Positions 5,718 through 7,940 of a stretch of DNA of 64,000 nucleotides are shown here, in pieces. Made by a program: the position numbers and the translations under genes. The stretch's first letter is position 1. Every line of letters starts with the position of its first letter. Below the pieces are notes generated by a model that was not told the DNA's origin, ran no database searches, and was given only the letters and a program-made list of their open reading frames with translations. Where the stretch lies: the NCBI RefSeq assembly GCF_055900595.2, contig NZ_CM148325.1; one strand, given 5' to 3'.

Positions 5718-7940
5718 TTAGTCCTCGTTTACAACCTTTTGCTGGGCGGCTTTTTTGGCCTGAACGCGGGCAATAGCCGCGGCAACTGCCGCTTTGCGCG
5801 GATCAACCTGTTCTTCTGGTACCGCATTAGCCTGTTGCTGTTCCAGCTTGCGTGCTTTGGCGCGGGCAATAGCCGCTTCGACGGCAGCTTTGCGCGGATC
5901 AACCTGTTCTTCTGGCTCCGCATTAGCCTGTTGCTGTTCCAGTTTGCGCGCTTTGGCACGGGCAATAGCGGCTTCGACGGCAGCTTTGCGCGGATCGACC
6001 TGTTGTTCTGGTTCCGCATTAGCTTGTTGCTGTTCCAGCTTGCGTGCTTTGGCGCGGGCAATAGCCGCTTCAACGGCGGCTTTGCGCGGGTCAACCTGTT
6101 CTTCTGGTTCTGCGTTAGCCTGTTGCTGTTCCAGCTTGCGTGCTTTCGCACGGGCAATAGCCGCTTCAACGGCGGCTTTGCGTGGATCGATCTGTTCTTC
6201 TGGCTCCGCATTAGCCTGTTGCTGCTCCAGCTTGCGCGCTTTGGCGCGGGCGATAGCGGCTTCAACTGCGGTTTTACGTGGATCAGCAACGGTTGCTGCG
6301 TCGTTAGTTTGCTGCAGTTCTGCCTGTTTCGCTCTGGCTTGCGCTTTACGGGCTTCCCGTGCTGCAATAATTGCGCTGTTATCCGGGCGTTCGCCCGCTT
6401 TAATCACAATAGGCTGTGTAGCCTGGGCCTGTTTCTCTTTCACCCGCGCCAGAGCGGCAGCAATCGCATCTTTATCTTTGGCTGCAGGTTGAACGGCTGC
6501 GCTCTTATGTCGTTCAAGGCGAGCCGCTTTTTCGCGCTCCAGACGAGCCTGGCGCGCTTCGAAACGCGCTTTGGCTTCTGCGGCGCGCTTTTCTTCCTGA
6601 CGAATAGCCGCAATTTCAGCTTTTTCCTGACGGAAATATTGCACCAGGGGAATATTGCTCGGGCAAACCCACGCGCAAGCCCCACATTCAATGCAGTCGG
6701 CAATGTTATGCGTGGTGGCTTTATCGTGTTGCTGACCTTTGCTGAACCAGTACAACTGTTGCGGCAAAAGATCCGCAGGGCAGGCGTCAGCACAGGCGCT
6801 ACAACGGATGCAACTTTTTTCTTCCTGTGGTTCGCCAAGTTCATTGGCAGAGGGAGCCAACAGACAGTTGGTAATCTTTACGACCGGGACATCCAGCCAT
6901 GGCAAGGTAAAGCCCATTAGCGGGCCGCCCATAATCACCATTTGATCGGCAGAGGGGCAGAATCCGGCATCATTCAATAAATGACGCACTGGCGTACCCA
7001 GCCGTGCCCAGACGTTGCCCGGGCGTGCGATTGCTTCGCCAGTCAGGGTCACGACACGCTCAGTAATCGGTTCGCCATCGATAACGGCACGTTTCACTGC
7101 ATAAGCAGTGCCGACGTTTTGCATTAATACGCCGATATCGGATGAACGCCCGCCATGTGGAACCTGCTTCCCGGTCAGAATGTAGGTTAATTGTTTAGCA
7201 CCGCCAGAAGGATATTTGGTTGGAATCACCCGCAGAGAAATATCGTGAGAGTCCGCCAGCACCGCGCGCAGCATGGAAATCGCCTGCGGTTTGTTATCTT
7301 CAATGCCGATAAGAATTTCGCGTGGCTGCAGAATATGCGCAAGAATGCGAATACCCTCTACGACCTGAGCCGCGCAATCCTGCATCAAACGGTCATCGGC
7401 GGTAATGTACGGCTCGCACTCAGCAGCGTTGATAATCAACGTTTCAATCTTATCTCCGCCGCCCTGCAATTTAACGCCTGTCGGGAATCCCGCACCACCC
7501 AGCCCGGCAACACCAAACTGATGAATGCGCTCGATTAACTCTTCGCGACTGCGAGAGCGATAATCGTCCCAGCCGTCGCGCGGGATCCAGCAGTCTTCGC
7601 CATCGGCATCAATAATCACGCTTAATTCAGCTAAAGCTGAAGGATGAGCCGTAGAGTGGGGCGCAATAGCCGTAACGGTACCCGAGGTGGGCGCGTGAAC
7701 TGGCAGCATTTTGCCGCGTCCACGGGTAAGCGGCTGGCCGCGCAGTACTTTATCGCCGACGCTAACGCACAACTCACCTTCAGCGCCAATATGTTGTTTC
7801 AGTGGTATGACAAAACGCTGCGCCAGTGGTACCTGGCGCAGGGGCGTACCGTTGGACTGGGTTTTCATCTCCGGTGGATGGATGCCGCCGTTGAAATCCC
7901 AGATTTTATTTTTTCTGAATGCAGAGAATAACTTAAGCAT
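5718..7940 (-). CDS. rsxC: Rnf/Rsx complex subunit C with repetitive C-terminal tail
   Basis: 740-aa ORF; ferredoxin-type Cys motifs ([24 protein letters not shown]); C-terminus carries 28-aa tandem repeats. Confidence 0.93.
5721..6224 (-). repeat. In-frame 84-bp tandem repeat, about 6 units, encoding [32 protein letters not shown]
   Basis: Near-identical 84-nt units visible in the DNA; the same repeat creates long spurious ORFs in other frames (5613..6920+, 5729..6367-, 5794..6492+). Confidence 0.9.

Follow-up and report, generated by a model that had tools for sequence, protein, structure and literature searches.

The C-terminal tail of Escherichia coli RsxC carries a copy-number-variable array of a conserved, predicted helical motif that may serve as a binding element

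Analysis of a 64,000-nt stretch of DNA (contig NZ_CM148325.1 of RefSeq assembly GCF_055900595.2; hereafter the window) showed that the 3′ end of rsxC is a polymorphic coding minisatellite (VNTR), i.e., an in-frame array of 32-residue units whose number differs among isolates by whole units. The repeat peptide itself appears, from the pattern of synonymous change, to be under strong purifying selection. The reading that we consider somewhat probable is that the array forms a flexible C-terminal tail in which a conserved basic helix recurs several times as a specific binding motif, the partners that can be named being candidates only.

The initial annotation had placed the repeat in the C-terminus of rsxC, and this assignment proved correct. 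The 740-aa ORF matched the RsxC equivalog of NCBIfam (NF003454) with 867.9 bits against a cut-off of 345 and TIGR01945 with 597 bits, also above its cut-off, and RefSeq annotation of the identical region gives the same gene. Pfam placed RnfC_N at aa 14–115, Complex1_51K at aa 139–283, SLBB at aa 296–344 and Fer4_7 at aa 376–430, which is the domain order of an RnfC protein (barrel-sandwich, NuoF-like FMN/NAD(P)H, SLBB and 2x[4Fe-4S] ferredoxin), and RnfC chains in the PDB matched RsxC at E = 3e-121. The gene is third in an rsxABCDGE-nth operon: neighboring minus-strand ORFs match rsxA, B, C, D, G, E and nth in size, and rsxA, rsxB, rsxC and rsxD are named at the matching loci by RefSeq annotation. 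Within the Rsx/Rnf membrane complex, RsxC forms the cytoplasmic subunit on the NAD(P)H side. A GAGGA string within the final rsxC codons is likely, judging by its position, the Shine-Dalgarno site of rsxD, whose ATG directly follows the rsxC stop codon. A search of Rfam with positions 5000–7000 on both strands gave no match at E ≤ 1 and, thus, no sign of an RNA element.

Tandem Repeats Finder (TRF) reported a repeat at 5765–6285 with a period of 96 bp, 5.4 copies, 89% matches, 0% indels and a score of 804; the tandem repeat is real and far beyond chance. An earlier description of this array as 84-bp/28-aa units between 5721 and 6224 had to be revised, since the true period is 96 bp/32 aa, the peptide quoted with that description itself has 32 residues, and 28 codons are found only in the last, divergent unit. 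The array runs from 6284 down to 5721, and with a boundary at 6224 most of unit 1 would be lost. It makes up the last ~190 codons of rsxC, with five full units (6284–5805) followed by the terminal unit up to the stop codon (Table 1), all arranged head to tail and each a multiple of three in length. The units had been called near-identical, which holds for the peptides and does not hold for the DNA: they differ pairwise at 6–14 of 96 positions (~89% identity), and the longest in-register exact match between neighboring units is 32 bp. The terminal divergent unit is kept across genera and in every allele examined.

Table 1. Features of the rsxC locus in the window, with positions, strand and basis of the assignment.
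Feature	Position	Strand	Basis or remark
rsxC CDS, 740 aa + stop	5718..7940	-	ORF, domain matches, RefSeq annotation of matching genomes
Predicted long helix directly after the ferredoxin domain, aa 431-481; C-terminal extension begins	6498..6650	-	AF2 pLDDT up to 96 (tail-only model)
Degenerate first motif copy, aa 489-506	6423..6476	-	invariant in enterobacterial alignment; predicted helix
PDNS element, aa 519-546, non-repeated basic helix ahead of the array	6303..6386	-	columns N521-A537 nearly invariant
Repeat unit 1, aa 553-584	6189..6284	-	in-frame 32-aa unit, DPRK register
Repeat unit 2, aa 585-616	6093..6188	-	in-frame unit
Repeat unit 3, aa 617-648	5997..6092	-	in-frame unit
Repeat unit 4, aa 649-680	5901..5996	-	in-frame unit
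Repeat unit 5, aa 681-712	5805..5900	-	in-frame unit
Terminal divergent unit, aa 713-740, 28 codons, ends rsxC	5721..5804	-	translation
GAGGA in final rsxC codons (AAC GAG GAC TAA ATG), likely Shine-Dalgarno site	5722..5726	-	read from sequence and ORF ends
Probable artefact ORF, 435 aa	5613..6920	+	opened by stop-free repeat; between-unit differences nearly all amino-acid changing
Probable artefact ORF, 232 aa, antisense frame, wobble positions coincide with rsxC	5794..6492	+	gene context, low-complexity product
Probable artefact ORF, 212 aa, +1 frame of rsxC	5729..6367	-	frame also read in frameshifted database entries (P0034, P0061)

The expectation that repeat number varies among isolates was borne out. 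In 59 complete E. coli genomes, a rank-spread sample of 5,424 rather than a census, flank-to-flank spans of 1380, 1572, 1668, 1764, 1860 and 1962 bp were found, from which 1, 3, 4, 5, 6 or 7 full units per genome were counted, with five the commonest. Six alleles were translated and all were in frame, including the natural allele with a single full unit. One further genome (H44) was consistent with two full units, and an 11-unit allele, present in one scaffold-level assembly (GCA_001030345.1) and possibly an assembly error, corresponds to the 7-unit allele with four added units that match units 4, 4, 5 and 6 without a mismatch. Old units have drifted at synonymous sites with the peptide fixed, and new copies can be exact; units would be gained and lost via unequal recombination or replication slippage between units. 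In one genome an IS element lies inside the array. Given that this genome and natural alleles with a single full unit exist, a long array is dispensable for viability.

Named O157:H7 records in the 59-genome sample carried six full units and K-12 records and derivatives five, and published RSXC repeat types of E. coli agree with MLST (PMC13185298). Because copy number tracks clonal lineages, the locus behaves as a slow minisatellite and not as a fast switch, and a longest exact match of 32 bp between neighbors fits rare recombination and counts that stay the same within lineages. Simple-sequence contingency loci likewise change length through repeats within a coding region; in contrast to these, the 96-bp unit of rsxC never shifts the frame, its copies are imperfect, and counts are stable within clones, the K-12 derivatives sharing one length and the O157:H7 genomes likewise. 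The locus is, therefore, not a phase-variable contingency locus.

The polymorphism as such is already known. Jothi et al. [quoted passage not shown] The window allele is R6 in their scheme, and the O157:H7 protein WP_000915707.1 is R7 both there and in our analysis. Theirs is a typing study which says that function was not tested there; it does not cover the synonymous-site pattern, the motif/spacer split or the distribution outside Enterobacteriaceae, and equivalents of R2, R3, R8 and R12, outside the published R4–R7, were seen here. That study also correlated copy number with the numbers of virulence and AMR genes (rho 0.32 and -0.28); we rejected these correlations as functional evidence, since the R7a group is mostly ST11 (O157:H7) and lineage confounding is likely. 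In Erwinia amylovora, Ham and Park (Sci Rep 2023; PMC10587187) described a strain-polymorphic 40-aa RsxC repeat of 0–5 copies and proposed it as a VNTR marker. This repeat lies at the orthologous position (start aa 553) and its first 16 residues are identical to the E. coli unit, whereas its spacer is longer and Ala/Pro-rich (period of 40 vs. 32 aa); zero-repeat alleles, reported for E. amylovora, were not seen in the E. coli sample of 59. A literature search for an earlier MLVA/VNTR scheme using the 96-bp rsxC (ydgN) locus found nothing relevant. A 96-bp ‘ms’ locus may be part of MLVA in Shigella/E. coli.

The differences between units fall mostly where they leave the peptide unchanged. Among the units of the window, codon position 3 accounts for 18 of the 22 variable columns, and the NG86 dN/dS of the five full units is 0.04 (dS 0.54), which argues for purifying selection on the peptide. 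Values of dN/dS ranged from 0.03 to 0.09, and a split by codon across seven alleles gave 0.03, with dS of 0.3–0.5, for motif codons 1–22 vs. 0.125 for spacer codons 23–32. This argument hinges on accepting the rsxC frame, which comes from gene context, because the antisense frame with coinciding wobble positions gives the same synonymous-type pattern. The consensus unit is free of stop codons in four of its six frames, and the long ORFs that had been noted in three other frames are indeed present (Table 1); to regard them as artefacts is still the best reading. For the antisense ORF at 5794–6492 the synonymous/nonsynonymous pattern alone does not settle the matter, since its 81/20 mimics the 81/16 of the rsxC sense frame, and this ORF was rejected as a gene on its context and its Cys/Ser/Ala low-complexity product. 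That the array might be a neutral or selfish minisatellite, persisting through its own recombination dynamics and without protein function, would fit the variable copy number and the existence of the one-unit and IS-disrupted alleles, but it is very improbable given the low dN/dS, a frame kept in every allele examined, and a motif and tail architecture conserved from Enterobacterales to Vibrionales and Alteromonadales.

Across Escherichia, Salmonella, Citrobacter, Klebsiella and Raoultella the first ~18–20 residues of each unit do not vary, while the spacers vary in sequence and length between genera and thereby give periods of 28–42 aa. Within a genus, all units share a genus-specific spacer, which indicates concerted evolution. 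A motif profile search of 1.84 billion protein representatives returned 188 matches; an RnfC core was present in every listed match of 500 aa or more, and 107 of the 150 best matches were fragments of <190 aa without the core. Short or core-less matches had been considered as non-RnfC carriers and were discarded, with one exception, as they proved to be pieces of tails, translations with frameshifts or read-throughs from RsxC into RsxD; these fragments and the frameshifted database entries make the assembly trouble foreseen for this locus plausible. The motif was recognizable in RnfC tails of Vibrio, Pseudoalteromonas, Rheinheimera, Motilimonas, Aliagarivorans and Celerinatantimonas, and positions on either side of the search anchor were 73–93% conserved over 202 instances of the motif. 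By these searches, the motif is essentially confined to RnfC tails of Enterobacterales, Vibrionales and Alteromonadales and occurs almost nowhere else. The one exception among the core-less matches is a stand-alone zinc-ribbon protein (P0226) with two motif copies, which a single low-coverage metagenomic contig encodes directly upstream of rnfD.

The initial annotation had seen the repeat as a flexible linker, and one could suppose accordingly that the tail is a passive spacer which acts by length, charge and flexibility, as an entropic bristle or a reach-setting tether, with copy number tuning its length. The spacers are indeed low-complexity and acidic and differ in length between genera, 1 to 11 copies are tolerated, and AlphaFold2 (AF2) gave no fixed tertiary arrangement. 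A linker, however, would need something to link, and here the array runs to the stop codon with only the 28-aa divergent unit after the last full unit. In addition, ~18 consecutive residues invariant across genera, at a dN/dS of 0.03 with appreciable dS, are unexpected for a spacer conserved in composition only, as is a motif all but restricted to RnfC tails among so many proteins; linker-like behavior is limited to the spacer of 9–20 residues. The Ala/Pro-rich linkers of 2-oxo-acid dehydrogenase E2 subunits and the Ala/Lys/Glu-rich domain II of TolA are low-complexity, Ala-rich segments with charged residues and are probably extended and flexible; they join folded domains, and their conservation is limited to composition. 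The spacers of Klebsiella and Erwinia RsxC (AAPAEAPAAEPA) look like E2 linkers, but the RsxC unit differs from both in its invariant stretch of ~20 residues and in having nothing after the array. The passive reading is, thus, in our view unlikely, and the cross-genus invariance together with the strong purifying selection argues for a specific peptide motif instead.

Structure prediction suggested that each unit comprises one basic, Ala-rich helix of ~22 residues followed by an acidic, Pro-flanked break of ~9 residues (NAEPEEQVD). The tail-only AF2 model contained six helices of ~23 residues with pLDDT of ~76–84, separated by breaks of 8–9 residues below 50; the full-length model showed the same pattern of helices and breaks, and only secondary structure was taken from it, as it was poor overall (mean pLDDT 46.7, with the core mostly below 50). 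In both models the pTM (0.24 for the tail alone, 0.24–0.26 for the pair) gave no fixed mutual arrangement of the helices, but the alignments were shallow (26 close orthologues for the full-length model and seven sequences for the tail), and together with the poor full-length model this makes the lack of a predicted bundle weak evidence. The units do not resemble a single α-helix (ER/K) domain, being short helices that are broken at each Pro-flanked spacer and Ala-rich rather than E/K-rich; only aa 431–481, upstream of the array, has that character. No known fold was detected: Pfam returned no family at E ≤ 1 for aa 441–740, a PDB profile search with the repeat unit returned no match at E ≤ 10, and of NCBIfam only the RsxC equivalog reached the tail, its profile stopping inside unit 1.

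Conservation covers all positions of the helix, alanines included, and not one face, which fits helix-helix packing as well as partner docking. The helices might accordingly pack via alanine stripes (A5-A9-A12-A16; V7-I11-A14) into an antiparallel bundle or a solenoid, the latter speculated on for Erwinia (PMC10587187), or cluster several Rsx complexes. A defined fold of this kind is hard to reconcile with spacers that have 9 residues in some taxa and more than 40 in others and with a one-unit allele, and AF2 offered no confident packing; we regard it as improbable.

An electrostatic tether, in which basic Ala/Lys helices bind an anionic surface, seems no better than unlikely as well. Each motif carries a charge of about +5 in an Ala/Lys-rich helix, and the AKKA tails of histone H1-like proteins resemble such a helix. 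In its DNA version the tether would draw the membrane complex towards SoxR on the DNA or towards the co-transcribed Nth, and in its lipid version acidic phospholipids would help to keep at the membrane a subunit that has no membrane helix; RnfC lacks a transmembrane anchor (PMC9588780), SoxR is DNA-bound (PMC12174285), and nth is the last gene of the operon. Against this, every basic block is followed by a spacer with a mean net charge of -4.5 (202 motif instances), which leaves the tail roughly neutral overall, and a helical wheel inspected by eye showed basic residues all round with Ala, Val and Ile as the only non-polar residues, unlike a classical membrane-binding amphipathic helix. Pfam also placed no DNA- or lipid-binding family on the tail.

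The segment ahead of the array is conserved as well and suggests where the tail emerges. Solved RnfC structures end at the equivalent of residue ~445–498 of the query, and aa ~431–498 of E. coli RsxC align with the C-terminal part of Azotobacter vinelandii RnfC (8ahx_C), whose C-terminal helix of >50 residues touches RnfB and RnfH and has a function ‘not yet understood’ (PMC12174285). This helix is the counterpart of the stalk from which the repeat tail would emerge in E. coli, but A. vinelandii RnfC ends at residue 496 without a tandem DPRK array, and no solved structure includes an equivalent of the repeat region. Between stalk and array lie a degenerate first motif copy, an element that also precedes the arrays in RnfC tails of Vibrio and Alteromonadales, and the PDNS element, to which segments of distant RnfC tails are related. 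The PDNS element, which belongs to the conserved tail and lies shortly before the array, is also the site of a laboratory-selected mutation, rsxC-I525F, whose effect resembled that of a deletion or was neutral (PMC4759930).

Under the binding-motif reading that we favor, a flexible ‘string of helices’ would extend from the long helix that in A. vinelandii Rnf is packed against RnfB, and would offer one specific motif, repeated several times, close to the electron input/output side of the complex. Candidate ligands are SoxR, ferredoxin/flavodoxin or another acidic redox partner, RseC, and the tail itself through self-association. Function would then rest on several motif copies, through valency and reach, rather than on their exact count, which we propose as the reason that 1 to 11 copies are tolerated. 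A more specific version, which we offer tentatively, is that (D/N)P(K/R)KAAV(A/E)AAIARAKA(K/R)K is an RnfC-specific docking motif across Gammaproteobacteria, held in 2–13 copies on a flexible acidic string beside RsxB/RnfB and capturing a partner (SoxR, ferredoxin/flavodoxin, RseC or other Rnf complexes) by multivalency. If so, copy number would set capture efficiency, and the zinc-ribbon protein upstream of rnfD would employ this module independently.

As a polymorphism, the repeat is of little use beyond strain typing, which is already published. For annotation it matters that the locus breaks short-read assemblies, opens spurious ORFs, and leads to frameshifted or ‘pseudogene’ calls for intact alleles. 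For the biology of the complex, the narrower point is that ~40% of E. coli RsxC (aa 431–740) lies outside every solved Rnf structure, and that this portion includes a motif invariant across genera and, by its substitution pattern, under strong purifying selection. Why the reduction of SoxR needs Rsx at all is a question raised elsewhere (PMC12174285). One testable possibility is that the way in which the membrane-bound Rsx complex locates and reduces SoxR on the DNA depends in part on a conserved, multivalent tail next to RsxB.

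The repeat lies in the C-terminal region of an ORF that we identified as rsxC. Pfam analysis of the 740-aa product returned RnfC_N, Complex1_51K, SLBB and Fer4, all inside aa 14-430, both TIGR01945 and the RsxC equivalog NF003454 scored above cut-off, and solved RnfC chains matched the product at E=3e-121, in agreement with the host gene named in the initial annotation. Within this ORF, Tandem Repeats Finder reported a single array at 5765-6285 with a period of 96, 5.4 copies, 89% matches, 0 indels and a score of 804. The unit had initially been taken, wrongly, as 84 bp (28 aa); the peptide quoted for it has 32 residues, and 28 codons are found in the terminal unit only, so that an extent of 5721-6224 (6 x 84) left out most of unit 1. 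The repeat is a polymorphic coding minisatellite.

Features of the rsx locus and of the RsxC tail (window coordinates unless marked aa)
Feature	Position	Strand	Basis
nth	2701-3336	-	ORF; name from operon order and ORF size
rsxE	3336-4031	-	ORF; name from operon order and ORF size
rsxG	4035-4655	-	ORF; name from operon order and ORF size
rsxD	4659-5717	-	ORF; name from RefSeq annotation of matching loci
rsxC	5718-7940	-	ORF, 740 aa; name from RefSeq annotation of matching loci
rsxB	7933-8511	-	ORF; name from RefSeq annotation of matching loci
rsxA	8511-9092	-	ORF; name from RefSeq annotation of matching loci
Long helix	aa 431-481		conserved tail piece upstream of array
Degenerate motif copy	aa 489-506		conserved tail piece upstream of array
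'PDNS' basic helix	aa 519-546		conserved tail piece upstream of array
Five full 32-aa units	6284-5805 (aa 553-712)	-	in-frame reading from each 'DPRK'
Divergent sixth (terminal) unit, 28 aa	5804-5721 (aa 713-740)	-	in-frame reading; then stop codon

As the initial annotation had considered possible, copy number varies among isolates, with one to seven full units in sampled complete genomes and 11 in one assembly. A query joining 600 bp of each unique flank recovered the locus from 5,424 of 5,426 complete E. coli genomes, and the flank-to-flank span was read in 60 rows spaced evenly down this ranking. The spans ran from 1380 to 1962 bp in whole-unit steps: one full unit in one genome (1380 bp), three in one (1572 bp), four in 10 (~1668 bp), five in 38 (~1764 bp), six in five (~1860 bp) and seven in four (1962 bp). 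The five-unit class contains the allele of the window and K-12, and the six-unit class the O157:H7 records and two other genomes; the translated seven-unit allele of strain 5-1 has two units with 33 residues, and the other three 1962-bp genomes have an equal span. A further E. coli genome (H44), outside this sample, has a span that fits two units. All six alleles that were fetched and translated were in frame and ended in an identical terminal unit. The shortest of them (E. coli 2014C-3599, NZ_CP027435.1, locus L002:716-1580), in which a single full unit precedes the terminal unit, is labeled by the RefSeq pipeline as a pseudogene 'missing C-terminus'; its frame is intact and its terminal unit normal, and the label looks like an annotation artefact from length polymorphism. 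The 11 full units were found in a 937-aa E. coli RsxC of the protein library (GCA_001030345.1, scaffold KQ087662.1, locus L009:301-3114), whose DNA equals the seven-unit allele with four further units (units 7-10) that repeat its units 4, 4, 5 and 6 without a mismatch, possibly the trace expected of recent unequal exchange, or an assembly error in this one scaffold-level assembly. In row 60 (E. coli DSM 103246, NZ_CP019944.1, locus L001:1000-2780), an IS4-like ISVsa5 transposase gene lies within the array and splits rsxC, with a possible polar effect on rsxDGE-nth. Copy number is constant inside clones; K-12 derivatives, for example, share one count, and so do the O157:H7 genomes. Neighboring units of the window match exactly, in register, over at most 32 bp, close to the lower limit generally given for efficient RecA-dependent exchange in E. 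coli, which fits these constant counts. Together, the data show an in-frame, polymorphic, lineage-stable minisatellite, and not a phase-variable contingency locus.

The units had been described as near-identical and highly regular; the likeness is one of peptide rather than DNA sequence. Any two of the five full units have 6-14 mismatches over 96 nucleotides, and 18 of their 22 variable columns are third codon positions. By the Nei-Gojobori method, dS and dN were 0.54 and 0.022 for the units of the window (dN/dS 0.04), 0.369 and 0.031 for the K-12 array (0.08), and 0.330 and 0.029 for the O157:H7 array (0.09). This pattern of high dS and low dN indicated that the array is not a fresh expansion; the units are old enough for silent sites to have drifted with the peptide kept fixed. 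Among 28 distinct units from seven alleles, dN/dS was 0.03 over codons 1-22 and 0.125 over codons 23-32. Weighed against the rival explanation of a neutral minisatellite, these results show strong purifying selection on the repeat peptide.

The consensus unit lacks stop codons in four of six frames, and the long ORFs previously noted in three other frames do span the array (5613-6920 and 5794-6492 on the plus strand, 5729-6367 on the minus strand). The antisense ORF 5794-6492 is wobble-coincident with rsxC and gave 81 silent vs. 20 replacement differences between units, compared to 81 vs. 16 in the sense frame; by itself, this statistic cannot separate the two, and frames of this kind can mislead dN/dS analyses of repeats in general. 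The antisense ORF was rejected since the sense frame runs on from the RnfC catalytic core and stops exactly at the rsxD start, and since its own product is a Cys/Ser/Ala low-complexity peptide. In the remaining two open frames nearly all between-unit differences replace an amino acid. Two E. coli RsxC entries of the protein library, P0034 (802 aa) and P0061 (832 aa), are frameshifted versions in which the repeat is read in its stop-free +1 frame, running on into a long basic Pro/Lys/Asn-rich tail; these frameshifts are probably sequencing errors, and they show that a frameshift inside the array lengthens the protein rather than truncating it.

Comparison of the RsxC tails of the best 120 homologues showed that each unit consists of a conserved basic Ala-rich segment, predicted as a helix (the motif), and a variable acidic spacer. 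In Escherichia, Salmonella, Citrobacter, Klebsiella and Raoultella the same 18 residues open every unit, and the rest is genus-specific in sequence and length, giving periods of 28-42 aa (spacers of 14 residues in E. coli, QEQQAGSEPAEPV in Salmonella and AEQQAAPAEAPAAEPA in Klebsiella). The spacer is common to all units within one genus, which points to concerted evolution, with unit turnover over times comparable to those of genus divergence. The terminal unit is also kept across tails and ends in (K/Q)VVNE(D/E). On the minus strand at 5722-5726, the final rsxC codons (AAC GAG GAC TAA) contain a GAGGA, with the rsxD ATG immediately after; this looks like the rsxD ribosome-binding site, which may account for the N-E-(D/E) end of RsxC in many genera.

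A profile from twelve units, searched against 1.84 billion representative proteins (E<=0.001), matched 188. Among the matches listed, every one of at least 500 aa has an RnfC core, and RnfC tails are essentially the only place where the motif occurs. Named matches were RsxC of Vibrio vulnificus, Pseudoalteromonas, Rheinheimera, Motilimonas, Alginatibacterium, Aliagarivorans and Celerinatantimonas, in which the motif starts with (D/N)P(K/R/A), occurs in 3-13 copies and alternates with spacers that are acidic, rich in Ser/Thr/Pro/Gln and 9 to >40 residues long. Over 202 distinct motif instances, positions outside the search anchor were 73-93% conserved and the spacer had a mean net charge of -4.5. 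Fragments of <190 aa without the core made up 107 of the 150 matches listed, consistent with assemblies breaking at the rsxC repeat. The sole motif carrier without an RnfC core among the matches whose sequences were examined was P0226, a 206-aa library entry (ENA metagenome contig ERZ18242496 NODE_5800, locus L008:226-846) that combines two motif copies with an MJ0042-type zinc ribbon and a long acidic linker; its gene is flanked by an hpt fragment on one side and by rnfD-rnfG-rnfE-nth on the other, its stop codon overlaps the start of rnfD, and the contig (3.2x coverage) is possibly chimeric. Conservation of sequence, not of composition alone, speaks against a passive spacer or bristle and against the flexible linker of the initial annotation; in addition, nothing follows the array, which closes the protein and so links nothing, and it is not an inter-domain linker. 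Electrostatic tethering to DNA or acidic lipid through the basic motif is a further, less likely rival explanation.

The solved RnfC chains align to query residues 15-498 (8ahx_C), 14-443 (7zc6_C) and 15-448 (9eri_C), and none of the three covers the array. The unit profile gave no PDB match even at E<=10, and Pfam returned no family for aa 441-740; the unit is not a described domain. The full-length AF2 model (26 orthologues) was poor (mean pLDDT 46.7, pTM 0.26), and secondary structure alone was taken from it. The tail-only model (seven tails; mean pLDDT 71, pTM 0.24) predicted the long helix with pLDDT up to 96 and one ~23-residue helix per unit (PRK...QQQA, pLDDT about 76-84), with 8-9-residue breaks (NAEPEEQVD, pLDDT <50) between helices. 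The repeat is not an ER/K single helix; as for the rival explanation of a packed helical repeat, the low pTM gives the mutual arrangement of the helices no confidence. The rsxC-I525F allele, selected in phosphate-starvation evolution, was graded 'null or neutral' by its authors, a full rsxC deletion in its place giving no change (PMC4759930); its site (codon 525, window 6366-6368) is inside the conserved, non-repeated PDNS element, upstream of the array.

The C-terminal helix of A. vinelandii RnfC, >50 residues long, contacts RnfB and RnfH (PMC12174285). Given that E. coli aa 431-498 align to this helix region, the repeat tail probably emerges next to RsxB, the subunit handling the soluble redox partner. 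We propose that the tail would act as a flexible string showing several copies of one putative binding motif near RsxB, with unequal recombination or slippage adding and removing units. Valency and reach would count, not exact copy number, and this may be why 1-11 copies are tolerated.

A variable in-frame rsxC repeat is real and already in the literature. In E. coli, an identical 32-aa DPRK unit was described from 83 genomes, sorted into types R4-R7 (terminal unit included in the count) concordant with MLST (BMC Genomics 2026, PMC13185298), and Erwinia amylovora RsxC has a 40-aa unit at the corresponding position in 0-5 copies (2023, PMC10587187). To this record we add the selection pattern, the motif/spacer anatomy, a wider taxonomic range of the motif with its specificity for RnfC, and a wider allele range (1-7 and 11 full units). 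These four additions argue for a functional motif, so far uncharacterised, in the RsxC tail.
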